Counted from the first letter of the stretch, positions 3,855 to 34,881 are shown. The stretch is DNA of 64,000 bases from an uncultured Actinomycetes bacterium (GCA_964400785.1 CAYNWB010000004.1:677-64676), one strand, 5' to 3'. Notes: generated by a model not told the origin, from the letters alone. Translations and numbers: made by a program.

Positions 3855-4513
3855 CGGGTGGGGGGCGAGGCCGTCGGCCCGGGTCGAGCACGACCCGCGG
3901 CGAGATCCTCAGCGCCGCGCGAGAGCTGTTCGCCCGGCAGGGGTACGAGAACGCCAGCCTTCGTGCCATCGCCCGTCGCGCGGGCGTCGACGTCGCGCTC
4001 ATCGCCCACTTCTTCGGGTCGAAGCAGGGGCTGCTGCGCGAGGTGCTGACGCCCCCCGTCGACCCGTCCCAGCTGATCGGGAACGCGCTGGTCGGTGCTG
4101 AGAGGGACCGGATGGGTGAGGCGTTCGTGCGGGGCGTCGTGTCGGCGTGGGACGCGCCGGCCTACAACGCAGCGCTCACCGGCGGCCTGCGGACCGCCGT
4201 GACGAACGAGCTCGCGATGACCTACCTGCGCGAGATGATGATGACGACAGTGGTGGGGGCGGTCTCGGCGCTCTCGGGTGACGACCGTGCGGGTCGGCGA
4301 GCCGAGCTCGTGGCGGCGCAGATGATCGGTGTGGCCATGGCTCGCTACCTGCTCGAGCTGCCTGAGGTGACGGCGATGACACCGGACGAGCTCGCGCGAG
4401 CAGTGGGGCCGTCGGTGCAGCACCTGCTGACGGCACCGCTGGACTCACCCGACTCAACGGTCCCGATCGACCATGTAGGGAATGAGGTCGGCGACGAACC
4501 GGCGGGAAGGTGA
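3851..4513 (+). CDS. TetR/AcrR family transcriptional regulator
   Basis: ATG 3851 overlaps the preceding stop (ATGA). N-terminal HTH ILSAARELFARQGYENASLRAIARRAGVDVALIAHFFGSKQGL. The last 60 nt overlap the convergent gene at 4454..5488. Confidence 0.85.
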   Translation: MTGGGRGRRPGSSTTRGEILSAARELFARQGYENASLRAIARRAGVDVALIAHFFGSKQGLLREVLTPPVDPSQLIGNALVGAERDRMGEAFVRGVVSAWDAPAYNAALTGGLRTAVTNELAMTYLREMMMTTVVGAVSALSGDDRAGRRAELVAAQMIGVAMARYLLELPEVTAMTPDELARAVGPSVQHLLTAPLDSPDSTVPIDHVGNEVGDEPAGR

Positions 4514-5488
4514 GTCCGGGACACCCGCGAAGGCCTGCTCGAACGCCTCACCGGCCGAGTCGGCGATACCGCGGGCGAACTGGTCGGCGAACGCCACGCT
4601 GCCGTAGTCGTCCATCATGCTGCGGACGTCGGCGATCGCTTGCGTCGTGCGTCGTGGCGGTGGCAGTGCCAAGAACCGCGTCACGCGGTCGCGGTCGGTG
4701 TCGGAGGCAGCGGCGAGCAGATGGATGACCATCAGGGTTCGCTTGCCCTCGCGCAGGTCTCCCAGCGGCTCCTTGCCGTAGCGCTCGTAGGCCGCGGTGA
4801 GGTTGAGCACGTCGTCGCGAATCTGGAACGCGGCGCCGAGAAAGAAGCCGAACCGGAGCAACGGCTCGAGATCGATCGACCGCTTCGCGCCGACCAGGGC
4901 ACCGACCCGCAGCGGCAGGACGGTGGTGTACCAGCAGGTCTTCTTCATGATCAGGTCGAGGTAGTCGTCGGGGGTCAGGTCGGTCCGCCCGTCGCGCTGC
5001 CACCCCAGCTCGAGGGCCTGGCCGTCCACGGTCTGGCCGGCCATGAAGTCGAACTCCGACCACACTCGTGCGGCGAGCCGCCTGCCCAGCCGCCGTTCGT
5101 TGTCGCGCAACGCTCGCAGCCCGACGACGGCCAGCCCGTCGCCGGCGTTGAGGGCCAGGGCACGGCCGTACTGCCGGTGCAGGGTGGGGCCCCCGCGGCG
5201 CAGCTCGCTGTCGTCCTCGAGGTCGTCGTGGACGAGAAAGGCGGTGTGCAGCAGCTCGATGGCAGCCGCCGAGGGCAGCGCGTCGGCCTCCTGCCCTCCG
5301 AACGCGGCACAGGTGGCCAGGCACAGGGCCGGGCGCAGGCCCTTGCCGCCCCGACGCAGGTACTCCGCAGCAGGATCAGTCAGGTAGACGCTGGTGGCGC
5401 TGGCCGCGAGGTAGGACAGGGCCGCCTCGCGGGCCAGTGCCTCGTACGTGTCGAGCTGCGTGGCGAACCCGGGGGTGCCCTCGGTCAT
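4454..5488 (-). CDS. Polyprenyl diphosphate synthase (GGPP-synthase-like trans-isoprenyl diphosphate synthase)
   Basis: First Asp-rich motif FLVHDDLEDDSELRRGGPTLH and second motif FQIRDDVLNL, with the typical KKT/GKR elements. ATG 5488 overlaps the upstream stop (ATGA). Confidence 0.9.
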   Translation of the reverse strand: MTEGTPGFATQLDTYEALAREAALSYLAASATSVYLTDPAAEYLRRGGKGLRPALCLATCAAFGGQEADALPSAAAIELLHTAFLVHDDLEDDSELRRGGPTLHRQYGRALALNAGDGLAVVGLRALRDNERRLGRRLAARVWSEFDFMAGQTVDGQALELGWQRDGRTDLTPDDYLDLIMKKTCWYTTVLPLRVGALVGAKRSIDLEPLLRFGFFLGAAFQIRDDVLNLTAAYERYGKEPLGDLREGKRTLMVIHLLAAASDTDRDRVTRFLALPPPRRTTQAIADVRSMMDDYGSVAFADQFARGIADSAGEAFEQAFAGVPDSPSRRFVADLIPYMVDRDR

Positions 5489-6144
5489 CCGACGGCCTCA
5501 GGTCCGCCCGCCACCTCGACAGCCACCGGCAGCGGCTCGTCGGGCGCTCCCGAGACAAGCAGGAGGCCGTGGTAGAGACCGGCCTTCTGGTCCGCAGGAA
5601 CCCGCACCGACAGGCGCACCTCGACTCGACCGCCGGCGGCCACCTCGTCCACGACCCTCGGCGAGGTGCGCAGAGCCGTGCTGCCCAGCCGTGCCCCGCT
5701 GGCACACACGAGGTCCGTCGCACCCAGCAGCAGGTGCGTCACCGCCTCGGCCCCGGAGTTGTGGACCCACAGTGTCGCCTCGCCGACGCCGCCCGGCGGG
5801 GTCGCAGCGACGGTGACGCAGTCAGGCACCGGCGGGCTCGACGCCAGGCCCTGCCCGAACGCCAGGCCCTGCCCGGCCGCCAGGTTCGCCGCGTGGTCGA
5901 GCACTCGAAGGTAGGACTCGGCCACTGCGGCGCCCGACTGGAGGACGGCCTCGCGGTCGGCCCCGGGGCCGGCTCCCGTGAGGGCATCGACGACAGTGCC
6001 GCCGATGGCCGAGTCCACGATGCCGACGTAGCGGTCGACGACCGCAGCCGCAGAGGCCAGGCCGAAGCGCTGCACCTGCGCTGCCAGCCGGCGAGCCTGG
6101 TCGGCGGCACCGGGCACGAGGCCCGGGTGTGGTGTGCCGCTCAC
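5485..6144 (-). CDS. Hypothetical protein (219 aa): Ala-rich helical N-half, GQGLA x2 linker, predicted beta-rich C-half
   Basis: Open frame wedged between two supported genes, with 4-nt overlaps at both ends (GTGA at 6141-6144, ATGA at 5485-5488). Coding-type codon bias. No family recognised by eye. Confidence 0.65.
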   Translation of the reverse strand: MSGTPHPGLVPGAADQARRLAAQVQRFGLASAAAVVDRYVGIVDSAIGGTVVDALTGAGPGADREAVLQSGAAVAESYLRVLDHAANLAAGQGLAFGQGLASSPPVPDCVTVAATPPGGVGEATLWVHNSGAEAVTHLLLGATDLVCASGARLGSTALRTSPRVVDEVAAGGRVEVRLSVRVPADQKAGLYHGLLLVSGAPDEPLPVAVEVAGGPEAVG

Positions 6145-8249
6145 GCGGCCGGCTCCCGGCCCGCTGGCGTGCCGGTTGTGGCGAGGCGCACGTGTCCGTC
6201 CAGGATCGCCCGAGCAGCCAGCGTGCCGGAGCGTGTGGCGGCCTCCACGCAGCCGGCGTCGAGGCCGCAGGCCGTCCAGTCACCGGCGATCGCGAGGTTG
6301 GAGAACCCGGTGCGACCTGGAGCGAGACGGTGGCGACCCGAGCCGGGCAACGACTGCACGTAGCGATCGGACGGGTCGACGTTCGCCCGCACGTACTGGG
6401 AGGCCAGCCGGTCCGGGCCGCAGCGCCCCTGGTCGTCCCACAGCGCCTGCCATCGAAATCCCGCGGGCCCCGCCACTCCGGGCCACAGCGCGCCGACCTC
6501 GTCGTCGAGAAAGCGCACGAGGGTGTCGTGCACCGAGGCCAGGCACAGGTCGGGATCGGGGTGCGGTCCGGGGTCGGGCATGGCTCCGCACAGGTAGGCA
6601 AGGCTGCGCGGGCGGTGCCCGGCCGGCCAGCCTTCGCGAGGCAGCAGGTGCGGCATGGACGCCCACGTGTCGAAGGTGTTGCCGAAGCCGCTGAGTGTGA
6701 CCTCTGCAGGTCCGTCCCAGCCCATCTCGCGCTCCGGCACCTCGAACCAGAGCTGGGCCGCCTGCGTGGGGACGGTGGCCACCTCGTCCACCATGCGGCG
6801 CCAGGCCGGCTCCGCGCTGACCAGCTGGGATGCCACGTGGGGAACCATGCCGAGCGAGACGGCCAGCACCGCGACGTCGAAGTGCTCCCCGGCAACCAGG
6901 CGCACGGCCCGCGAGCTGTCCGCGCCGCTCCCGCTGCCCGCCCACCAGTGCGACTCCAGCTCGGTACCGGGATCGGCCGCGAGCTGCTCGACGAGCGGGT
7001 GGTCGGGCCAGCAGGGCAGACCGTCCACGCGCACCAGCGGCTCGTAGCGCGTGCGCCCGGGTGCGAGGTCGACCTGCCGGGTCAACCGGATCGCACGCAC
7101 GGACCGGTGCTCGTCCACCTCGATGTCGTCGAGGCGGTGGAAGAACCGCACCTGCACGCCGCGTCGCTCCAGCGCCTGGTAGAGCGGGGCGAAGACGACC
7201 TCCCCCATGCCGGCCTGCATGCGCCAGAAGATCGAGCCCTTGAAGTCGAAGAGCATGCGGGCCGCGAGCTGCAGGCCCAGGCCGGCTGCGAAGCGCGGGC
7301 GCGAGCGGTCTCCTCGCTCATAGGCGAACACCAGGTCGTACATGCCGCAGACGATGGGGGAGTCGAGCGTGTCCGGGCCCGCGCCGTGCCGGGCCAGCCA
7401 CTCGCGGTAGTCGAGGTGGTCGATGCCGTCGAACCCGGCCCCGACCAGCAGTCCGTCCACCACCATTCCCCGCAGGTTGGTCACCACCAGGTCGACCAGG
7501 TGCCACGTGCGGCGAGCGGACGGGTCGGCGAGAACCGCAGCGTGGACACCGTCGCGCCACGCGCTCAGCAGCCTGGCGAACGACTCGACGGCGGGAGCGG
7601 TGAGGCTGGCGTCGGCGGCCATCCGGCAGGCCTGCTCCAGCGCCTCGAGCGTGACGGCCAGCGCCGTCAGCCCGCCGCCGCGAACCAGCCCCGCCACGTC
7701 GGCGCGGTCAGGACGGGGTGTCGGCGACCCGCTCAGGTACACCCGGCCCGGGGCTGCGGACGATCCCAGGGAGCGGTGGAAGTCCGCGAGCAGCCGCAGA
7801 GAGCTCGTGGCGATGTGCGCAGGCGTGAGAGGTCGGTGCTCGGCGCCGGGTTCGCCGGGCAGCGAGTCGGTGGTCGAGAAGCGGGTGACGAAGTGCTGCC
7901 ACGTGGCGCCGTCACGGTCGGCGAGCCCGACGTCGCCCCCAGGCGCGACCGCGTCCTGCCATGTCTGTATCGGACAGGACGGGTCGGTGCTCGGCCGGTC
8001 GAGCTCGGCGTACACCTCGCGCAGCACACGGAACGTCGCGTCGTAGTAGCCGAGCAGGACGTGCAACCCGTGCTCCTCGATGCGGTCGAAGGCACCTCGG
8101 CTGCTCGCTCCCTTGCCCCCGAGCCGCCAGCCGCGCTGGTAGACGGTGATGGAGTCCAGGCGTGACCGCCAGTCCCCGGCGCTCAGATCCCAGGCGGTGA
8201 CGAGCCCGGCCATGCCGCCTCCGAGGATGACGACGCGAGGACCACTCAC
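6141..8249 (-). CDS. FAD/NAD(P)-binding oxidoreductase of the phytoene-desaturase/amine-oxidase superfamily (702 aa)
   Basis: GTG at 8249, one nt after the upstream stop. N-terminus VVILGGGMAGLVTAWDL (GxGxxG), then YQRGWRLGGK and EHGLHVLLGYY. C-terminal FAD motif NLAIAGDWTACGLDAGCVEAATRSGTLAA. The track ORF start at 8822 lies inside the upstream gene and was rejected. Confidence 0.8.
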   Translation of the reverse strand: MSGPRVVILGGGMAGLVTAWDLSAGDWRSRLDSITVYQRGWRLGGKGASSRGAFDRIEEHGLHVLLGYYDATFRVLREVYAELDRPSTDPSCPIQTWQDAVAPGGDVGLADRDGATWQHFVTRFSTTDSLPGEPGAEHRPLTPAHIATSSLRLLADFHRSLGSSAAPGRVYLSGSPTPRPDRADVAGLVRGGGLTALAVTLEALEQACRMAADASLTAPAVESFARLLSAWRDGVHAAVLADPSARRTWHLVDLVVTNLRGMVVDGLLVGAGFDGIDHLDYREWLARHGAGPDTLDSPIVCGMYDLVFAYERGDRSRPRFAAGLGLQLAARMLFDFKGSIFWRMQAGMGEVVFAPLYQALERRGVQVRFFHRLDDIEVDEHRSVRAIRLTRQVDLAPGRTRYEPLVRVDGLPCWPDHPLVEQLAADPGTELESHWWAGSGSGADSSRAVRLVAGEHFDVAVLAVSLGMVPHVASQLVSAEPAWRRMVDEVATVPTQAAQLWFEVPEREMGWDGPAEVTLSGFGNTFDTWASMPHLLPREGWPAGHRPRSLAYLCGAMPDPGPHPDPDLCLASVHDTLVRFLDDEVGALWPGVAGPAGFRWQALWDDQGRCGPDRLASQYVRANVDPSDRYVQSLPGSGRHRLAPGRTGFSNLAIAGDWTACGLDAGCVEAATRSGTLAARAILDGHVRLATTGTPAGREPAA

Positions 8250-8250
8250 G

Positions 8251-11200
8251 TCAGAGCAGCTCGTCGGCGTCGGTCGCCTCAGGAAGGGAGTCTGCCTCGG
8301 CGAGGTCGTCACGGGCGGCTGACAGCACAGCGCGCCAGTCGGAGGGGCGGTGCGGCTCCGGAACCCTGGCCAGCGCGAGCGCGGCCCGCAGCCGTGCCAC
8401 CCGGGCCCCTTGCTCGGTGGCGATCCGGATCGACTCGGTGAGGTCGCCCACGGCCTGAGCAGAGTCGCCCCAACGCTCGAGGGCGAGGGTCGCCCGTAGC
8501 TGCAGCAGCACCGGCAGGTGCACGTACTCGCCGGACTTGTGCACCATCTCGATGGCCTCGTCCACCCGCTCGGCGGCTCTGTCGACCTGCCCCGCCGCGC
8601 GGTACAGCTCCGCGAGGTAGGCGAGGTTGGCGGGAGCGAAGGCCTGCTGGCCGAGCGCGTGCAGGGTGGCCACGTTGGTCTCGAGGAACTCCCGGTCCGG
8701 CTCGTCGTCGGGGGTGGCCGCGGCGTAGTAGGACGACCCCAGGAGCATCCAGTAGGCGTACCCGTGCTCCTGGCCGATGCCGACGACGCGAGCGCCCAGT
8801 GCGCGGGCGCCGGCGTGGTCACCGAGAAACCGACGGATCCAGGCCGCGTACGTCAGGACGAACGCCTCGCTCCACGGACCGCGGGGAAAGCCGATCTGCT
8901 CCGTGCGCGCCACGGCCTGCTGCTCCCAGGCCGTAGCGTGCGTGCGCTCGCCGCGGAGGGTGCTGACGCACGCGAGCGCGATCGCCGAGACTGCGATCGG
9001 GTCGTTCGGCAGGGGCCAGAACGGCGACACCGACTGCTCGGAGGGTCGGGCCGCGAAGCCCTGCATCGCGAGCTCGAGGTAGTGCTGCGAGTCGGTGAGC
9101 CTGCCCTCGTAGAACGACTGCCACCCCGCGCACGACTGCACCTCGGGCTCGAACCAGGCGAACTCGGCCTGGCGCACCATCGCGGTGAGGCGTTCGATCA
9201 GGCCACGCGCGGTCGGCAGCTCGCCGCTGGTGAGCCAGTAGGCCCAGATCGCGATCAGAGACGGCAGCACCTCGGGACGGCTGCCGAGCCGGGTGGCAAG
9301 GGCCTCGGCACGTCGGTGGTCGAGCTGGACGTCGGGCGCGGCGTAGCCCTGCACCGAGCTCACGCTCAGTGCCCGCAGCATGCGGCTGGTCAGCTCGGCG
9401 AGGTCGCGGTCCTGCGACTCGGGGAGGGTCTCCAGCAGCTCGAGCGCGCGAGTGAGCAGCTTCGTCGCCTCGGTGTGTGCGCCTCGGGTCTGCTGTGCCG
9501 TAGCGGCCACCAAGTAGAGCCGGCTCGCCGCCGGCGCGTCACCGGCGAGGTCGAGGTGCTCGGCCACGAGGGCCGGCTCGGCGCCGCGCTCGGAGATGAC
9601 CTCCGCGATCTGGGCGTGTGTCCGGCTGCGCACATCGAGCACCTGGGTCTCGTACGCCGCGTCGCGCATGAGTGCGTGCCGAAACCGGTAGGTGGAGCCG
9701 CCGGGGTCGGCCCGCTCGATGATGCCCGCGTCGGCGAGCACGAGCATCTGGTCGGCGACGGCCGGGTCGTCACCGACGACGGCGGCCAGGGTGGCCGGGT
9801 CGAACGCCGGTCCGAGGGTGGCGGCCACCTGTGCGATCCGCAGGTCGACACCGGGGGACTTCAGCCGCCAGGTGAACAGCTCCTGCAGGCGTACCGGCAT
9901 CGGCTCGGTGCGAGCCTCGTCGAGGTGGGAATGGGTCAGCTCCTCGATGAAGAGCGGGACGCCCTCCGCGCGGTCGATGATGGTGGCCAGAACATCATCG
10001 GACAGGTGCCGGCCGACTGCGAGGTTCTGCAGCAGGTGAAGGGCCGAGGCGTTGTCGAGACGGCGAAGGTGAAGCCCGGTTGCCGCCTCACGCCATGAGA
10101 TCGACGAGTCGTCGCGCGTGGTGGCAACGGTGAGCACGCCGGCCGGTCGGCGCTCGGTCAGACGCCCGAGCAGCCCCACGGTGGACGGGTCGGCCCAGTG
10201 CAGGTCCTCCACGATCAGCAGGTACGGGCTGGTCTCGGCCATGGCCGCCACCCACGCCACCAGCTGGTTGAGCGTCTCGTCCAGAAAGGCGGTCGGGTCG
10301 AGCTCCGGGGCGGGGTGGTCCGCAGTGGCGTCGACGCCGATGAGGGGGGCCAGGAAGGGAACCGACGACGCAGGGTCGAGGCCGAGCGACTCCAGGTTCT
10401 CGACCAGTCGGGCGAGCCTGTCGGTGCCCTCGTCGACGACGTCGAGGGCCCGCTCGATGGTGCGGGCCACGGGCCACAACGAGACGTTGGAGTAGTAGGG
10501 CAGGCATCCCGCGCTGAGAACCCTGCCTCCGCTGCTCTCGACGTGGTCGAGGATCTCGGCCACCAGCCGGGTCTTGCCGATCCCGGCCTCGCCGACGACC
10601 AGGAAGGAGCTGCTCGCGTCGGCCTCGGCGCCGTCACGCACGCGCTGCCAGGCAGCGAACAGGCTGTCACGAGGCTCGTCCCGACCGACCAGGCCGGCCT
10701 GCCGGTAGCGCTCGGCGTCGAACCGCGCCCCGGCATGGCGGGGTCGGTCGACGGCGAACACCTCCACCGGACGGCTGATGCCCTTGAAGTCACGCTCCCC
10801 GAGGGAGTGCAGGTAGAAGTCGGTGTCGACGAGGTTCTGGGTCACGTCGCTGATGACGACCGTGTTCGGCTCGGCAGCCTGCTGGATGCGGGCAGCCAGG
10901 TTGGGCGCCACGCCGACGATCGAGTCGCGCTCGTCGCTGGACCGCTCGTCGCTGAGGTCGGCGACCACGACACGTCCGGTGTGGATGCCGATGCGTACCT
11001 CCGGCGCCACGCCGATGCGGCGCTGCAGGTCAGGACGCGCCGCCTGCATGGCAGCCACCAGGTCGAGCCCGGCCAGCACGGCGCGACGACCGTCGTCCTC
11101 GTGCGGGTCGGGGAAGCCGAACCCGGCCAGGATGCCGTCACCCATGTACTTCATGACGTACCCGCCGTAGCGCTCGACCGCCTCACGCGCCGTGGCCCGG

Positions 11201-11502
11201 TAGAACGAGAAGACGTCGCGCAGCTGCTCGGGCTCGACCTGCTCGGACAGCATCGTCGAGCCGACGATGTCGGAGAACAGCAGCGACATCAGTGCGCGCT
11301 CGCCGCTCGCGCTCTGCTGACGTGCGGCGACGGCGCGCAGCACCTGCTCGGCGCGCACGTTGTCCGAGTCGACCGCACGCACCTCCTCGGCCGTGGCACG
11401 TGCCGTCTCCAGGTCGCCGGCAGCGAGCGAGGCCTCCGCCGCGGTGAGCAGACGGTCGAGCAGCCGGGTGAGCCGCGACTCCGCCGAGGTGCTGCTGGTC
11501 AT
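8251..11502 (-). CDS. Class III adenylate/guanylate cyclase domain fused to a STAND/AAA ATPase and a TPR-like helical region (1083 aa)
   Basis: ATG 11502 overlaps the upstream stop (ATGA). Cyclase core: LFSDIVGSTMLSE, KYMGDGILAGFG, IGIHTGRVVV, GVAPNLAARIQ. Walker A VVGEAGIGKTRLV and Walker B-like LLIVEDLHWAD, then a long helical repeat region. No C-terminal HTH seen. Confidence 0.85.
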   Translation of the reverse strand: MTSSTSAESRLTRLLDRLLTAAEASLAAGDLETARATAEEVRAVDSDNVRAEQVLRAVAARQQSASGERALMSLLFSDIVGSTMLSEQVEPEQLRDVFSFYRATAREAVERYGGYVMKYMGDGILAGFGFPDPHEDDGRRAVLAGLDLVAAMQAARPDLQRRIGVAPEVRIGIHTGRVVVADLSDERSSDERDSIVGVAPNLAARIQQAAEPNTVVISDVTQNLVDTDFYLHSLGERDFKGISRPVEVFAVDRPRHAGARFDAERYRQAGLVGRDEPRDSLFAAWQRVRDGAEADASSSFLVVGEAGIGKTRLVAEILDHVESSGGRVLSAGCLPYYSNVSLWPVARTIERALDVVDEGTDRLARLVENLESLGLDPASSVPFLAPLIGVDATADHPAPELDPTAFLDETLNQLVAWVAAMAETSPYLLIVEDLHWADPSTVGLLGRLTERRPAGVLTVATTRDDSSISWREAATGLHLRRLDNASALHLLQNLAVGRHLSDDVLATIIDRAEGVPLFIEELTHSHLDEARTEPMPVRLQELFTWRLKSPGVDLRIAQVAATLGPAFDPATLAAVVGDDPAVADQMLVLADAGIIERADPGGSTYRFRHALMRDAAYETQVLDVRSRTHAQIAEVISERGAEPALVAEHLDLAGDAPAASRLYLVAATAQQTRGAHTEATKLLTRALELLETLPESQDRDLAELTSRMLRALSVSSVQGYAAPDVQLDHRRAEALATRLGSRPEVLPSLIAIWAYWLTSGELPTARGLIERLTAMVRQAEFAWFEPEVQSCAGWQSFYEGRLTDSQHYLELAMQGFAARPSEQSVSPFWPLPNDPIAVSAIALACVSTLRGERTHATAWEQQAVARTEQIGFPRGPWSEAFVLTYAAWIRRFLGDHAGARALGARVVGIGQEHGYAYWMLLGSSYYAAATPDDEPDREFLETNVATLHALGQQAFAPANLAYLAELYRAAGQVDRAAERVDEAIEMVHKSGEYVHLPVLLQLRATLALERWGDSAQAVGDLTESIRIATEQGARVARLRAALALARVPEPHRPSDWRAVLSAARDDLAEADSLPEATDADELL

Positions 11503-13106
11503 GGTCTCCCGGCCTCGGTGGCGCGGGCGACGTAGAGCTGCACCGGCGTCGGCGACGACCCCTGCGTGGCCTTGAAGTGGCCGACGTAGAGGCCGGGCGC
11601 GACGCTGGTGTCGGTGCACTCCAGCCGCACTCCGTAGGTCTGCTCGTCCACCTGCTGGACGCTGACGATGAGGTCGGACGCCGGGATCGTGGCCCCACCG
11701 GCCTCGATGGACACCAAGGGGCTGACGACCGGCTGGTCGTCGGGAGCAAGCCCGACGACGGGAATCGTCGTCACCTCGGCGGCACCGGCGGTGGCCGCTA
11801 CGTCGCCGGCGCGAGCCTGCCCGGAGGCAGCGCCGGTCATCGCTGTCGCAACGCCCCGCATCGCGCTTCTCGGGCTGCCGGGTGGGGCGAAGCCGGCGTC
11901 GAGGCCGTCCCGCGCGATGTCATCGAGCATCTCCAAGCCGTACGTCCACGCCTTGGCCCAGTCCTTGGCCAGGGCAGACCAGTAGCGGGTGCCGTCGGCC
12001 AGCCAGTCCGAGGTGGAGTACCCGCCGGACGTGGCACGGGAGCTCATGTCGGCCATGAGGTCGAGGTACGTCCGCGCGGAGTCGCCGAAGAAGTCGAACC
12101 ATGCCTGCATGCCCTCGGAGAGCACATCGGTCGTTGAAGGCTGTGCGCCTCCCGGCTGGTGGCTCGGCCCATGGGGCGTGCTCGACGAACCACCCTCGAC
12201 CGCGCCGCGCACCCAGTCGGTCCAGAACGGGCAGACCATGCGGGCCACGTCGTCCCAGACGTCTTCTGTGAAGCCGACGATCTTCAGTGCCTTGACCCGG
12301 CGCACGGAGCCCAGATCGTTGACCGACAGAAAACCTCGGTCGACGTCGAGCTCACCGTCCAGGCTCAGGGCGAGGTCGTAGGTCATGCCGGCGGCGCTGT
12401 CGCCGTCGCGCCAGTAGTCGCAGTGCAGCAGCGTGTTGAGCTCTCTGACCAGCTGAACCTTCTCGTGGAACACGCCGTGCCAGTGCTCGTCGCCCAGCCC
12501 GGAGATGTCGACGGGTTCGTCGGCGCCGACGAGGCTCATGCCCTTGAACAGCATCGGCCCGCGCGCCGGCCAGCTGCGTGGGTCGATCCAGCCCACGACC
12601 TGCTCGAAGGGCGCGTCGGTCTCGAACTCCGAGAAGACCCACGCCGCAGTGAGCTCACCCACCTGCACCGTGCGTGTCTCGCACAGGTCGTGGCCGACGA
12701 ACGCGACATCCCGGTGCGGCAGTGCCTGCCCTGTCGTGGTCGTCTCGAACGGTACGCCCTCGGAGGCCGACCGCTTGAGGTCGGAGAGCAGTTCGTCCGG
12801 GTCGACCTCGCGGGCCCGCGCCACGGACTCGGCGAGCAGGTGGTACTCACCCTTCGTCGAGTCGTAGTGCGGGAAGTCGGCGCGGGCGAGGGCGTGCAGT
12901 ACCCCGATCCGTGCCGAGACCGGGATCTCGCTCTCCGGGGCCTCGGCGACGGCCCGCAGGTCGGCGCCGGGGGAGCTCGGGCGGAAGCCGGGAACGTCCC
13001 CAGGCTCGACGCCTCCGAGGGAGTCCGACAGGGCGTGCAGGCCGACGAGCGCTCGGTGCGGGGCGTCGCTCTCCGGTCCGCGGTACGACGGCGGCGTGTC
13101 GGTCAT
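11499..13106 (-). CDS. Hypothetical protein (535 aa), first gene of the cyclase operon
   Basis: ATG 13106 is preceded by AAGGGG with 6-nt spacing (the track start 13157 has no SD). Long open frame with coding codon bias. The stop overlaps the cyclase start. No family recognised by eye. Confidence 0.65.
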   Translation of the reverse strand: MTDTPPSYRGPESDAPHRALVGLHALSDSLGGVEPGDVPGFRPSSPGADLRAVAEAPESEIPVSARIGVLHALARADFPHYDSTKGEYHLLAESVARAREVDPDELLSDLKRSASEGVPFETTTTGQALPHRDVAFVGHDLCETRTVQVGELTAAWVFSEFETDAPFEQVVGWIDPRSWPARGPMLFKGMSLVGADEPVDISGLGDEHWHGVFHEKVQLVRELNTLLHCDYWRDGDSAAGMTYDLALSLDGELDVDRGFLSVNDLGSVRRVKALKIVGFTEDVWDDVARMVCPFWTDWVRGAVEGGSSSTPHGPSHQPGGAQPSTTDVLSEGMQAWFDFFGDSARTYLDLMADMSSRATSGGYSTSDWLADGTRYWSALAKDWAKAWTYGLEMLDDIARDGLDAGFAPPGSPRSAMRGVATAMTGAASGQARAGDVAATAGAAEVTTIPVVGLAPDDQPVVSPLVSIEAGGATIPASDLIVSVQQVDEQTYGVRLECTDTSVAPGLYVGHFKATQGSSPTPVQLYVARATEAGRP

Positions 13107-13235
13107 GCGGTGCCCCTTGTCTGCGCAGGGTGTGCTGCTGCCCTCGTGGCAGTGCATGAACGCCCTTCGTGGCTGGAGTCTAGGTAGCCGATCGACCCGA
13201 TGTCTGCACTCGGCGCGGGTCGCTGTACCGGGGCG

Positions 13236-33418: not shown

Positions 33419-33880
33419 TCAGCTCGTGGTGACCGGGTCGCCAATCTGGACGCTCGCCTCGGTGAAGGTGCCCCCGGTGGTCTCGACCGCCAGCTGGTAG
33501 TCGGAGTCCGGGGCGTAGCGCGGGCACGTGGAGTCGGCAGCCGGACAGGGCTGCATCTCGGCAACCCCGACCACGCGGCCGTCCATCGCCCAGACGATCG
33601 ACAGGGGCAGCTCGACACCACCCATCCAGAACTGGTGGCGGACGGGGGAGTCGTAGACGAACGCCATGCCCGTGCCGGGGGGCACCTGTGTGCGCCCCAT
33701 CAGCCCGACCCGCTTCTGCTCGTCGGTGGAGGCGACCTCGGCCTCGATGGGCGCTGCGGCTCCGACCACGACCGTGATGGTCTGCGGGGCAGCCTCGCCG
33801 ACCGGCCCGCACCCGGCCAGGCTCACCATGCCGGCCAGCACCCCGACGGCGGCGAGCGTCGCGCGGGATGGGATCCTCAC
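33419..33880 (-). CDS. DUF192 domain lipoprotein
   Basis: GTG 33880 overlaps the upstream stop (GTGA). Lipobox MVSLAGCGP. RVGLMGRTQVPPGTGMAFVYDSPVRHQFWMGGVELPLSIVW is the DUF192 pattern. Confidence 0.7.
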   Translation of the reverse strand: MRIPSRATLAAVGVLAGMVSLAGCGPVGEAAPQTITVVVGAAAPIEAEVASTDEQKRVGLMGRTQVPPGTGMAFVYDSPVRHQFWMGGVELPLSIVWAMDGRVVGVAEMQPCPAADSTCPRYAPDSDYQLAVETTGGTFTEASVQIGDPVTTS

Positions 33881-34881
33881 GACCCCTCGACGACGTCGAC
33901 GTGGATGTGGTCGAGGTGGCGGTCGGTGACGGTGGTGCTGCCCGACGGGTGGGTGTAGTCGCGCCACCCCTGCGCCCCCCGGCGAGCCGACCAGATCTTG
34001 TCGTCGTAGATGACGACCGCGACGCCGAGGCGCTCGGCGTGGGCGACCAACCAGTGGGCGGCTGCCCAGCCCTCTCGCCCTCCGGCCCCGTCCTGCATCG
34101 GGAAGAACACGTCGAGGGCGAGTCCTCGGTCGTGGGTGGAGGTGCCTGCTGCGGTCTGGTAGGTCGAGATCGGGGTGTCGGCACCGAACCAGGCCCGAAG
34201 CTCGTCGGCGACCGACTGCGCTCGCGGGGTGAAGCCGGAGGGGTCGGCCTGCTCGACGGCATGGCCGCTGTGCCGGATCGAGCACGACAGCGTGGCCGGC
34301 GACCAGCCGCTCAGCGCCGACGCGAGCACACGGGCGTCCTGCTCGTGGTCGGCGTAGGCGGTGGGGAAGGCGCTTCGCTGCACGGCCTGCGCGGCGTCGG
34401 TGACGGGCATCTCGGCGTAGCCGGGCACCTTCACGAGCTCGTCGTAGAACCTGCCGGCCGCGTACACCGGGTCCTGCACCTGCTCGGCAGACCCCCACCC
34501 CTGCGACGGCCGCTGCTGGAACAGGCCCAGGGAGTCGCGGTCGCCGTAGTCGAGGTTGAGCAGCTTCGACTCCTGGTAGGCGGTCGCGAGCGCGATGGTC
34601 ACGGCGCGCGCCGGCAGGCCTCGGCGCTCTGCCACGGCAGCGATGGTCGCGGCGTTGGCCGCCTGCTCGGGGGTGAGCCTGACCGTCTGCTCGCCCAGGG
34701 TGGCCTCGCAGCGCGGAAGCAGCGCGAGCGAGGGCAGGGCGTTGCCGGCCCACTGGTAGCCACCGACGAGCACGCCGGCCACCAGCGTCAGGACGACCAG
34801 CGCGCCGACGAACCCACCGCCGCGGCGCCGCCGGCGCGGCGGTTCGCCTGCGGGAGGGTGACGCTGCAGGGTCGACGACAT
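33877..34881 (-). CDS. Conserved membrane-anchored hypothetical protein
   Basis: N-terminal basic stretch plus TM FVGALVVLTLVAGVLVGGY. The extracytoplasmic part contains DSLGLFQQRPSQGWG. Coding codon bias. Confidence 0.65.
   Translation of the reverse strand: MSSTLQRHPPAGEPPRRRRRGGGFVGALVVLTLVAGVLVGGYQWAGNALPSLALLPRCEATLGEQTVRLTPEQAANAATIAAVAERRGLPARAVTIALATAYQESKLLNLDYGDRDSLGLFQQRPSQGWGSAEQVQDPVYAAGRFYDELVKVPGYAEMPVTDAAQAVQRSAFPTAYADHEQDARVLASALSGWSPATLSCSIRHSGHAVEQADPSGFTPRAQSVADELRAWFGADTPISTYQTAAGTSTHDRGLALDVFFPMQDGAGGREGWAAAHWLVAHAERLGVAVVIYDDKIWSARRGAQGWRDYTHPSGSTTVTDRHLDHIHVDVVEGS

Follow-up and report, generated by a model that had tools for sequence, protein, structure and literature searches.

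A conserved actinobacterial operon joins a cyclase-STAND protein to putative isoprenoid enzymes and a predicted START-domain protein

Introduction

Cytoplasmic proteins of the Rv0386/Rv1358/Rv2488c type combine an N-terminal class III nucleotide cyclase with an AAA_16/NB-ARC-like ATPase and helical repeats, and terminate in a LuxR-type HTH. We know of no ligand for this mycobacterial group, nor of any Rv0386-type protein described inside an operon with isoprenoid enzymes. LAL/MalT regulators, which control biosynthetic clusters, are likewise built around an AAA_16-TPR core. In family 2B encapsulin terpenoid operons, a cNMP-binding shell protein is paired with a terpene cyclase/polyprenyl transferase cargo. 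Here, we report the analysis of a five-gene operon from an uncultured Actinomycetes bacterium, located in a 64,000-nucleotide stretch of DNA (GCA_964400785.1, CAYNWB010000004.1:677-64676; hereafter, the window).

The signalling protein of this operon has the same architecture as the Rv0386-type cyclase-STAND proteins, except that the LuxR-type HTH is missing. As with the MalT/LAL STAND regulators, an AAA_16 + TPR ligand/ATP switch is encoded beside what may be its own pathway, but the output is an N-terminal nucleotide cyclase and not a DNA-binding domain. The TOMM kinase/cyclase fusion, a family tied to a biosynthetic cluster, has the same cyclase, STAND and repeat architecture; unlike in that system, no TOMM precursor or cyclodehydratase genes lie near the window operon, although a distant variant of the cluster does carry a kinase-cyclase-AAA_16 protein. 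Family 2B encapsulin operons likewise link cyclic nucleotides to isoprenoid enzymes in actinobacteria, but the module described here has neither a shell gene nor a cNMP-binding domain.

Results

The five genes lie on the minus strand (13106..4454) in the order P535, cyclase-AAA_16-TPR protein, 702-aa flavoprotein, P219 and polyprenyl synthase, joined by ATGA or GTGA overlaps or a 1-nt gap. Re-reading the sequence reproduced the layout given in the original prediction. P535 starts with ATG (13106..13104) behind AAGGGG (13118..13113), and its stop overlaps the cyclase start as ATGA (11502..11499). One base separates the cyclase stop (TGA, 8253..8251) from the flavoprotein GTG at 8249; the flavoprotein stop and P219 start overlap as GTGA (6144..6141), the P219 stop and synthase start as ATGA (5488..5485), and the synthase ends at 4454. 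Upstream, 129 nt lie between the operon and malQ (PF02446, 13236..14732, minus strand). The 3′ side is bordered by the predicted convergent TetR gene, which is the final gene of a plus-strand ABC-transporter operon and overlaps the 3′ end of the synthase gene by 60 nt (4454..4513). The chosen starts hold: public gene calls give identical 1,083-, 219- and 344-aa products, and homologues open with the same MTD for P535 and the same ..RVVILGGG for the flavoprotein. Membrane segments are absent from all five proteins, and no transporter belongs to the module.

Co-occurrence was judged on loci long enough to tell, among 37 loci from species-level genomes. All five genes were present in 30/37; the remaining seven contigs stop inside the module, and every sufficiently long locus repeated the full set in unchanged order. 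Carriers include Acidimicrobiia, Intrasporangium, Ornithinimicrobium, Pedococcus and Blastococcus, with orthologues 55-71% identical across classes and unrelated flanks (Intrasporangium, Acidimicrobiia and other MAGs compared). Nearly all joins are −4 overlaps or gaps of 1 to 7 nt in about 28 independent loci. Tight junctions are ordinary in high-GC operons, so junctions alone prove little; the arrangement rises above chance because order and junctions repeat in these roughly 28 loci with unrelated flanks. All five families also occur in Mycobacterium/Mycolicibacterium in a divergent arrangement, and in Mycobacterium JS623 the cluster sits on a mobilizable plasmid, adjoining a recombinase. Metagenome loci with flavoprotein homologues (39-71% identity, enough flank) carried a synthase homologue in 24/24 cases and a cyclase-like STAND protein in 22/24, in several different arrangements.

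The operon is thus real and intact in many soil actinobacteria, and its five genes form one conserved, translationally coupled unit, inherited and moved as such. The original prediction had called for a comparison of gene neighbourhoods, and the five genes do co-occur in related genomes. Its description of a self-contained accessory module holds, given co-occurrence in every long-enough locus, differing flanks, a promoter-like element of the operon's own and plasmid carriage in one Mycobacterium.

That promoter-like element (13177..13206, minus strand) consists of a −35-like CAGACA (13206..13201), an 18-nt spacer and a −10-like TAGACT (13182..13177), and lies 70 nt ahead of the P535 ATG. It was not called by a generic sigma-70 scan. 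A TAGACT/TACACT hexamer occurs 51 to 88 nt upstream of the start codon in 23/26 orthologous loci, in many of them behind a GGGACA-like −35 box, and transcription would start at this element. The 5′ leader (13107..13176), read from the sequence, holds the Shine-Dalgarno AAGGGG (13118..13113). Related loci have in common a block resembling CCGGTGACGTGACAGCAAGGYGGGT ahead of the ATG, and RNAalifold gave no consensus structure for the leader.

Pfam recovered the families named by the original prediction and returned nothing above threshold for P535 and P219. The second gene (8251..11502, minus strand) encodes a cytoplasmic protein of 1,083 aa with a predicted class III nucleotide cyclase domain (aa 72-245; PF00211, 63 bits versus a cut-off of 21.9), an AAA_16 STAND ATPase (aa 271-454; PF13191, 77.5 bits) and a helical/TPR sensor region (about aa 550-1083; weak TPR_12 match). 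These profile matches assign it to the class III adenylate/guanylate cyclases and to the STAND NTPases of AAA_16 type. Among 28 orthologues, the metal-binding Asp (FSDIVGST, GDG) and the transition-state residues Asn201 and Arg205 are invariant, the purine-specifying Lys118 is at least 70% conserved, and Walker A (GEAGIGKT) and Walker B (VEDLHWAD) are conserved. The nearest PDB relatives of the cyclase domain are the adenylate cyclases CyaB and CyaC, and we infer that the output nucleotide is cAMP. The TPR sensor is conserved like the rest of the protein (~0.6 column identity) which, with orthologues 55-71% identical across classes, indicates that it is not diversifying.

Pfam and NCBIfam found no HTH domain in the 1,083-aa protein, and a LAL/MalT-type transcription regulator was rejected for want of the C-terminal LuxR-type HTH. 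The best full-length profile match was NCBIfam TOMM_kin_cyc (TIGR03903; 372 bits over aa 99-1045, cut-off 705.75). Because the match enters the profile at position 320, it does not cover the kinase part; being under the cut-off, without the N-terminal kinase and without TOMM genes as neighbours, the protein was not classed as a TOMM kinase/cyclase fusion.

P535 (11499..13106, minus strand) belongs to an unannotated family with no sequence match in Pfam, NCBIfam, PADLOC or PDB. There are at least 256 homologues, with coverage above 90% in all 120 listed. At 50% identity the family comes to only 277 clusters in a set of 1.84 billion representatives, and no phage homologue was found. Although it had been deemed unplaceable, a confident AlphaFold2 model (mean pLDDT 84.8, pTM 0.74) yields four parts: an N-terminal helical domain (aa 11-134), a START/Bet v1 (SRPBCC) domain (aa 143-303; 12198..12680) with pLDDT above 90, a long helical hairpin (aa 328-403) and a C-terminal beta-sandwich (aa 444-526). 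Foldseek against the PDB gave 55 matches at E ≤ 0.001, and all 50 of the 50 listed belong to the SRPBCC/START/Bet v 1 superfamily, including norcoclaurine synthase, TTHA0849, START and the TcmN/ZhuI cyclases (E 5e-5 to 1e-3; target TM up to 0.71). The modelled helix-grip fold, in which an antiparallel sheet curls about a long C-terminal helix, accordingly places aa 143-303 in that superfamily. This is the most conserved part of P535 (column identity 0.61-0.68 versus 0.51 for the whole protein); its invariant residues include W179, W209, E215, C229, D256, R257, G258 and K275, even in relatives at 32-35% identity.

The helix-grip fold is common to PYR/PYL abscisic-acid receptors and phytohormone-binding proteins, and among the fold matches are proteins whose structures contain abscisic acid, gibberellin (terpenoid hormones) and cytokinin. 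The likeness of P535 to PYR/PYL-type START/Bet v 1 receptors is at fold level only (9-17% identity, no sequence-family membership), and unlike them P535 bears three additional domains. START-fold proteins can be enzymes too, and a catalytic role, as in the TcmN/ZhuI cyclases or norcoclaurine synthase, would be equally compatible with the predicted fold.

The 702-aa FAD flavoprotein (6141..8249, minus strand) had been described as desaturase/amine-oxidase-type, which we narrow to the phytoene-desaturase (PDS)/HpnE type by fold and by nearest sequence and fold relatives. Pfam matched only the N-terminal Rossmann/amine-oxidase part. The best profile match in the PDB was rice PDS (5mog), and the AlphaFold2 model (pLDDT 76.5, pTM 0.80) likewise had 5mog as its best Foldseek match (E 9e-13, target TM 0.71), with amine oxidases behind at 0.41-0.62. 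The motif GG..G..E.G.H...G.Y and the C-terminal GDW FAD motif are common to the flavoprotein, PDS, zeta-carotene desaturase (ZDS) and HpnE, but identity is ~14%, and the flavoprotein is ~230 residues longer, with an added helical insertion of ~120 aa (aa 143-264; 7458..7823). HpnE was the best NCBIfam match (68 bits versus a cut-off of 283; PDS, 26 versus 569). With scores far under every family cut-off and no hpnC/hpnD or phytoene synthase partners, either inside the module or up to about 30 kb away, assignment as an HpnE hydroxysqualene dehydroxylase or a plant-type PDS equivalog was rejected.

P219 (5485..6144, minus strand) is small and fast evolving. An alignment of 25 orthologues showed a conserved N-terminal helix (DVQRFGLxSAAxVVDRY) and a C-terminal beta-sandwich (about aa 110-212) with a WxHN motif. 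Its earlier status as unplaceable stands insofar as Pfam gave no match above threshold, but the beta-sandwich can be recognised, through a weak match to Pfam NEW3 (20.3 bits, cut-off 24.4) and a weak profile-level resemblance to the beta-sandwich of P535 (E 6e-4, probability 29%). The P219 homologue in the plasmid cluster of Mycobacterium JS623 has 229 aa (hhalign 98%, E 4e-14).

The last gene (4454..5488, minus strand) encodes a 344-aa protein assigned by profile to the trans-isoprenyl diphosphate synthases (PF00348, 189 bits versus a cut-off of 27), with a FARM motif (DDLED, aa 88-92) and a second motif, DDVLN, that recurs in Thermus GGPPS 1wmw. In the PDB it comes closest to Thermus thermophilus GGPPS 1wmw (157 bits) and to Pyrococcus GGPPS 1wy0, and it is probably a short-chain synthase of GGPP/FPP type, the chain length being predicted from sequence. 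All specific GGPP, FPP and long-chain NCBIfam equivalogs scored under their cut-offs (IdsA, 187 versus 468; GGPP_syn, 165 versus 500), as did the encapsulin cargo model NF041169 (171 bits, cut-off 450).

As predicted, Pfam and NCBIfam revealed no phytoene or squalene synthase, terpene cyclase or prenyltransferase among the five proteins. A canonical terpenoid cluster was rejected, there being no committing terpene synthase/cyclase, head-to-head synthase or prenyltransferase among them; nor were such committing enzymes found in the examined flanks of related loci. The actinobacterial module encodes no cNMP receptor. Profile searches placed the operon in no described pathway, as had been stated, and full-text literature searches found no description or function of it.

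In Proteobacteria and Bacteroidota, distant flavoprotein homologues adjoin AAA_16 signalling proteins whose outputs are cyclases or kinases. Across these phyla and distant actinobacterial variants, the AAA_16 core of the partner is constant and its output varies (cyclase; kinase + cyclase; kinase alone; kinase + GAF + cyclase). Such swapping of the output domain beside a constant flavoprotein is consistent with a flavoprotein that acts on the sensed input. In Qingshengfaniella the cyclase gene is followed by a Crp/Fnr gene, which suggests that a cNMP output is read in that locus. The flavoprotein gene of Azospirillum is followed by a gene for a FadL-type outer-membrane transporter for hydrophobic compounds, and acetoacetate-decarboxylase-family genes accompany the flavoprotein in Azospirillum, Catenovulum and, as a fusion, Qingshengfaniella. 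In the nonactinobacterial relatives this decarboxylase-like partner replaces the prenyl synthase, so the shared chemistry may not be isoprenoid. In Rufibacter, nuclease or recombinase genes lie nearby.

Discussion

We tentatively favor, at somewhat less than even confidence, a mechanism in which the enzymes synthesize or alter a lipid derived from GGPP and the STAND cyclase senses it and reports it as cAMP. The synthase would supply GGPP (or FPP), and the flavoprotein, perhaps with the help of P219, would oxidize, reduce or isomerize a lipid derived from it. The hydrophobic product, which may be a prenyl lipid, a quinone-like molecule or a signal, might be bound or carried by the P535 START domain and, free or P535-bound, serve as ligand of the TPR/STAND sensor. 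Ligand and ATP would then drive oligomerization that pairs cyclase domains as active dimers, and the level of an isoprenoid metabolite would thereby be reported as cAMP. The whole would be a cassette that both makes and senses a ligand and answers with a nucleotide second messenger, and the proposed interplay of P535 and cyclase follows the receptor-plus-partner logic of the PYR/PYL receptors. The nearest relatives of the synthase (GGPPS) and flavoprotein (PDS/HpnE) argue for isoprenoid chemistry, the START fold for handling of a hydrophobic ligand, and the intact cyclase and Walker motifs for an active signalling protein; a TPR region conserved to the same degree as the remaining protein is expected for a conserved endogenous ligand. 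Against this mechanism, the module has no enzyme for C30/C40 substrates, and all characterized PDS/ZDS/HpnE enzymes act, to our knowledge, on such substrates. Also against it count the lack of a cNMP receptor in the actinobacterial module, the scores of the synthase under every NCBIfam equivalog cut-off, the decarboxylase-like partner of the nonactinobacterial relatives and the enzymatic roles that START-fold proteins can have. Information could also flow in reverse, with the cyclase regulating the enzymes.

Somewhat less likely, the other four genes would form a pathway (for a pigment, membrane lipid or secreted terpenoid) with the cyclase-STAND protein as cluster-situated regulator, sensing another cue and steering the pathway via cAMP or direct contact in LAL/MalT fashion. 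The AAA_16-TPR core of such regulators, the natural-product-cluster family to which the nearest NCBIfam model (TOMM_kin_cyc) belongs and the tight translational coupling, which suits a pathway with its own regulator, are consistent with this, and kinase-output variants could control enzymes by phosphorylation. However, the module has no DNA-binding domain, no cNMP receptor and no committed terpene synthase, cyclase or prenyltransferase to define an end product, and a changing output with a constant flavoprotein partner is less simply explained.

Less probable is sensing of uptake or catabolism, in which an exogenous hydrophobic compound is both the substrate of the flavoprotein and the cue sensed by the STAND protein, and the actinobacterial synthase, P219 and P535 are lineage-specific additions. 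The FadL-type transporter of Azospirillum and the acetoacetate-decarboxylase-family genes of Azospirillum, Catenovulum and Qingshengfaniella point this way, but a biosynthetic prenyl diphosphate synthase accompanies 24/24 actinobacterial loci with enough flank, and the module has no transporter and no membrane segments.

The original prediction had also raised a defence role, which we regard as improbable. The STAND protein would detect an invader and make a cyclic nucleotide in the manner of Pycsar/Avs, with the other proteins as effectors (e.g., through a membrane-active lipid). STAND with an N-terminal signalling domain does recall Avs and bacterial NLR-like proteins, the cyclase domain matches PADLOC PycC models (E 1e-15), and the distribution is patchy, with the JS623 plasmid copy beside a recombinase and nuclease/recombinase genes nearby in Rufibacter. 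Against it stand the conserved, nondiversifying sensor, the housekeeping neighbours, a P535 without phage homologue and the lack of any effector with a cNMP-binding, TIR, nuclease or membrane-spanning domain; the cyclase matches are generic, and PADLOC is silent on the other four proteins. Pycsar membership was rejected on the same PADLOC result and the absence of a cNMP-binding domain from those four: the class III-fold cyclase domain is common to both, but here it forms one protein with a large conserved STAND sensor, and its companions are putative biosynthetic enzymes. Chance adjacency of unrelated genes sharing a transcript, for which overlapping stop/start codons, common in high-GC genomes, might speak, is highly improbable, contradicted by unrelated flanks throughout and by five families found together in every sufficiently long locus of the 37 and also, rearranged, in mycobacteria.

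Returning to the lipid-sensing mechanism, a bolder and more speculative form of it would make the operon a self-contained synthase and receptor pair for a new isoprenoid-derived intra- or intercellular signal, and the flavoprotein family the ligand-making partner of AAA_16 STAND kinases/cyclases in several phyla. GGPP synthase, PDS-like flavoprotein and P219 would build the molecule, and P535 would hand it to the TPR sensor of the STAND cyclase for conversion into cAMP. The operon may reveal what cyclase-STAND switch proteins sense and, if this form is true, would provide the first known ligands for a large class of orphan STAND signalling proteins.

The five genes of the module were re-read on the minus strand of the window, from 13106 to 4454. 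They encode P535 (535 aa, no annotated family), a cyclase protein (1,083 aa), an FAD-dependent flavoprotein (702 aa), P219 (219 aa, no annotated family), and a trans-polyprenyl diphosphate synthase (344 aa). The chain and its junctions were exactly as the original prediction had them: P535 and the cyclase gene overlap at ATGA (11502 to 11499, minus strand), the cyclase stop TGA (8253 to 8251, minus strand) is one base from the flavoprotein GTG at 8249, and overlaps at GTGA (6144 to 6141, minus strand) and ATGA (5488 to 5485, minus strand) join flavoprotein to P219 and P219 to synthase. P535 begins with ATG at 13106, after AAGGGG (13118 to 13113, minus strand), and its homologues start at the same MTD. 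The 1,083-, 219-, and 344-aa products were identical to public gene calls (NCBI contig, 95.5 kb; G+C content of the window, ∼72%). The 129-nt gap to malQ (PF02446) upstream was confirmed, as was the convergent TetR gene downstream, which shares 60 nt (4454 to 4513) with the 3′ end of the synthase gene, so that the two transcripts would be antisense there. TetR closes a plus-strand operon that otherwise encodes an ABC-2 permease and two ABC ATPases. Neither TetR nor MalQ had a counterpart at other module loci. The sole Rfam match in the window was a TPP riboswitch (RF00059; 51497 to 51601, minus strand; 67.2 bits versus a gathering score of 54.3). A 334-aa ORF adjoining a DapD-like gene (33877 to 34881, minus strand) has the base composition of a coding sequence and matched no Pfam family at an E value of ≤1e-5.

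Module loci were collected from one genome per species, giving 37 loci, all labeled Actinomycetota except one metagenome-assembled genome (MAG) labeled Acidobacteriota. Carriers included Ornithinimicrobium pekingense, Pedococcus cremeus, Blastococcus, Tetrasphaera, Ornithinibacter, Dermatophilaceae, Propionibacteriaceae, and many Acidimicrobiia. Whether the genes co-occur elsewhere had been proposed as a check, and tblastn with the five window proteins found all five, in order, in every long-enough locus; Intrasporangium mesophilum, an Acidimicrobiia MAG, and another MAG have the same order among other neighbors. Identity to the window proteins was ∼70% for the synthase, ∼67% for the flavoprotein, ∼65% for the cyclase protein, ∼55% for P535, and ∼36% for P219, and junctions at nearly all related loci were 4-nt overlaps or 1- to 7-nt gaps. 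By these sequence comparisons, the five genes form an operon and are inherited together. The MAG labeled Acidobacteriota (L008, CAWHEU010000022.1) carries a window-type module with 60 to 71% identity to the actinobacterial one, through either mis-binning or interphylum transfer. Several module genes are frameshifted in the MFD-series MAG contigs (loci L040 to L043), so gene lengths there are not to be trusted. An apparent cyclase-flavoprotein fusion in one of them (L041, a single 1,812-aa ORF) was rejected as a frameshift artifact, since the true cyclase C terminus (ADELLASG*) and the GTGA overlap sit in another frame.

A TAGACT/TACACT hexamer lies 51 to 88 nt before the P535 ATG in 23 of 26 loci, often accompanied by a GGGACA-like −35 box; the window counterparts are TAGACT (−10-like; 13182 to 13177, minus strand) and CAGACA (−35-like; 13206 to 13201, minus strand). 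The module thus appears to bring its own promoter, and transcription would then begin near window position 13170, ∼7 nt past TAGACT. A generic promoter and terminator scan was uninformative in the GC-rich DNA of the window. Directly 5′ of the P535 start (window 13107 to 13140), many loci (L017, L037, L028, L039, L012, and others) have a block resembling CCGGTGACGTGACAGCAAGGYGGGT, within which is a GTGAC direct repeat. A structured leader RNA or riboswitch was considered and rejected: Rfam had no match there, single-sequence folds were variable GC hairpins, and RNAalifold gave no consensus pairs. Given no consensus RNA structure, the block could be a protein-binding site. A CRP-type site (GTG-N8-CAC) was absent from the leaders examined.

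The cyclase protein combines a class III cyclase domain, most similar to CyaB and CyaC (both adenylate cyclases), with an AAA_16 STAND ATPase and a TPR region. Across 28 orthologues, it keeps the metal-binding Asp residues, Asn201 and Arg205, and both Walker motifs (A and B). The TPR region is conserved as strongly as the catalytic parts. It would work like Rv0386-type mycobacterial cyclase-STAND proteins and LAL/MalT switches, but without their HTH domain; Pfam found no DNA-binding domain in it. It is also similar to TIGR03903, yet falls below the family cutoff and has no kinase. Membrane segments were absent from all five module proteins.

The synthase (PF00348, 189 bits) has both Asp-rich motifs, and its nearest relatives are the geranylgeranyl diphosphate (GGPP) synthases of Thermus thermophilus and Pyrococcus. 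It falls below every NCBIfam equivalog cutoff, so a C20 product is only presumed. In the flavoprotein, Pfam sees the N-terminal FAD/Rossmann part only, and the best NCBIfam model is HpnE (68 bits versus a cutoff of 283). When PDB sequences were searched with a 30-orthologue profile, rice phytoene desaturase (5mog) ranked first, and it was also closest to the AlphaFold2 model (pLDDT, 76.5; pTM, 0.80) by fold (E value, 9e-13; target TM score, 0.71), followed by generic amine oxidases (0.41 to 0.62). An insertion of ∼120 residues (aa 143 to 264) forms long helices. The flavoprotein is thus like phytoene desaturase and HpnE in fold, but below every family cutoff and, in this module, without a head-to-head synthase partner.

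P535 had been described as unplaceable in any family. This held for family searches, with no match in Pfam, NCBIfam, PADLOC, or PDB sequences, but not for structure: the confident model (pLDDT, 84.8) has four parts, namely, a helical N-domain, a START/Bet v 1 helix-grip domain (aa 143 to 303), a long helical hairpin, and a beta-sandwich. Every one of the 50 PDB fold matches listed was an SRPBCC protein; they include START lipid-transfer domains, norcoclaurine synthase, TcmN/ZhuI cyclases, and proteins that bind abscisic acid, gibberellin, or cytokinin. Homologues of P535 number at least 256, none named (the 120 listed each cover >90% of P535), and the family is confined to 277 clusters (50% identity) among 1.84 billion representatives. 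Ten distant P535-like proteins had no informative Pfam domain. The motif HWHGVFHE was discarded as a metal site, its histidines being replaced (GWRGTYLE) in relatives at 32 to 35% identity, and a phage origin was set aside after no match in the phage collection. P219 consists of a conserved N-terminal helix followed by a beta-sandwich at the C terminus, the latter weakly similar to that of P535 (hhalign E value, 6e-4; probability, 29%); on this weak evidence, P219 may be a paralogue of the C-terminal half of P535.

A metagenome scan with a flavoprotein profile (543 of 600 stretches confirmed among the matches listed) yielded 80 loci at 39 to 71% identity; neighbors were counted in the 24 with flanks of ≥5 kb upstream and ≥2.8 kb downstream. 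All 24 had a synthase homologue and 22 had a cyclase-like STAND protein, which included the cyclase domain in 19. Arrangements varied, the window type being one of them. Locus L085 has the order cyclase, P535-like 429-aa protein (94% probability to the P535 START domain), 147-aa protein, flavoprotein, P219-like protein, and synthase. In a divergent type, the genes for synthase and P219 lie on the strand opposite to those for a P535-like protein, a 170-aa protein, cyclase, and flavoprotein. The large partner also varies (kinase-cyclase-AAA_16 in L110, kinase-TPR in L121). Mycobacterium and Mycolicibacterium carry the divergent type: in Mycolicibacterium litorale between ESX-4 genes and cutinases and in Mycobacterium sp. 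JS623 on a mobilizable plasmid, alongside a recombinase, with a 229-aa P219 homologue (hhalign, 98%) and a 481-aa P535 homologue (68%). In the complete M. litorale genome (CP019882.1; L128, 3051 to 3964), the synthase matches in two frames without a gene call, reflecting either a pseudogene or a sequencing error. The extra 147- to 173-aa protein of variant clusters (L131, L128, L088, and L085), whose gene immediately precedes that of the cyclase or flavoprotein, had no Pfam match. Its reading as a detached P535 beta-sandwich was rejected as not significant (E values, 0.24 and 0.32); the nonsignificant alignment falls on that beta-sandwich, a hint that two genes may have fused to give P535. In two distant variants, the synthase gene is followed by a gene for a 1,160- to 1,208-aa protein (L121, 10967 to 14449; L117, 9187 to 12813), in which an N-terminal acetoacetate decarboxylase (ADC)-like segment is the only recognizable part; this ADC-like family also accompanies the flavoprotein in Proteobacteria.

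Outside Actinomycetota, flavoprotein homologues (30 to 36% identity) adjoin AAA_16 signaling proteins. Qingshengfaniella has a flavoprotein/ADC-like fusion followed by a cyclase-AAA_16-TPR protein and, after it, a Crp/Fnr regulator, and Rufibacter has a kinase-AAA_16-GAF-cyclase protein divergent from the flavoprotein gene. Eight Azospirillum plasmids or chromids were matched; the region viewed (A. brasilense Sp7 p3) holds a flavoprotein and a FadL-type porin, an ADC-family protein and a second flavoprotein, and a giant kinase-AAA_16 protein. Catenovulum has the flavoprotein and an ADC-family protein only. With the flavoprotein present across these clusters and its companions differing, the flavoprotein family looks like the hub, to which prenyl synthase, P219, and P535 look like actinobacterial companions and ADC-like proteins the usual companions elsewhere.

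The catalytic motifs are intact and the folds assigned. The synthase and flavoprotein, perhaps with P219, would make or modify a GGPP-derived lipid, which the START domain of P535 may bind and the STAND cyclase may sense to produce cAMP. We tentatively place the enzymes on this input side mainly because the AAA_16 core and flavoprotein stay constant across variants in which the STAND output domain may be a cyclase, a kinase, or both; conservation of the TPR region like that of the catalytic parts fits an endogenous ligand. The reverse direction, in which the cyclase regulates the pathway to an end product, is doubtful, if nearly as likely as sensing. The FadL and ADC associations hint at a role in catabolism or uptake, which is improbable and fits poorly with the actinobacterial synthase. 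Unlikely, too, is the defense module entertained in the original prediction, given that the module has no effector, a sensor that is not diversifying, housekeeping neighbors, no phage homologues, and PADLOC matches to the cyclase domain only.

That no described pathway has this composition was borne out among known pathways and defense systems, and neither full-text literature searches nor the STAND conflict-systems paper (PMC7159879) describes the cluster. The module reads as a STAND signaling switch tied to a small isoprenoid pathway and is not categorically new. It includes two protein families without annotation and a phytoene desaturase-like enzyme without a known substrate. Large cyclase-STAND and kinase-STAND proteins are numerous in actinobacteria, mycobacteria included, and we know of no activating ligand for them. 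Here, one cyclase-STAND protein shares its operon with a START-fold binder and with enzymes expected to produce or modify a small hydrophobic compound, a grouping that provides concrete candidates for ligand and coreceptor. Cultivable carriers (Pedococcus cremeus CGMCC 1.6963, Ornithinimicrobium pekingense DSM 21552, Blastococcus sp. CT_GayMR16, Mycolicibacterium litorale, and Mycobacterium sp. JS623) make the proposed functions testable, and the flavoprotein-STAND link, seen again in Proteobacteria and Bacteroidota, may reflect a general rule.
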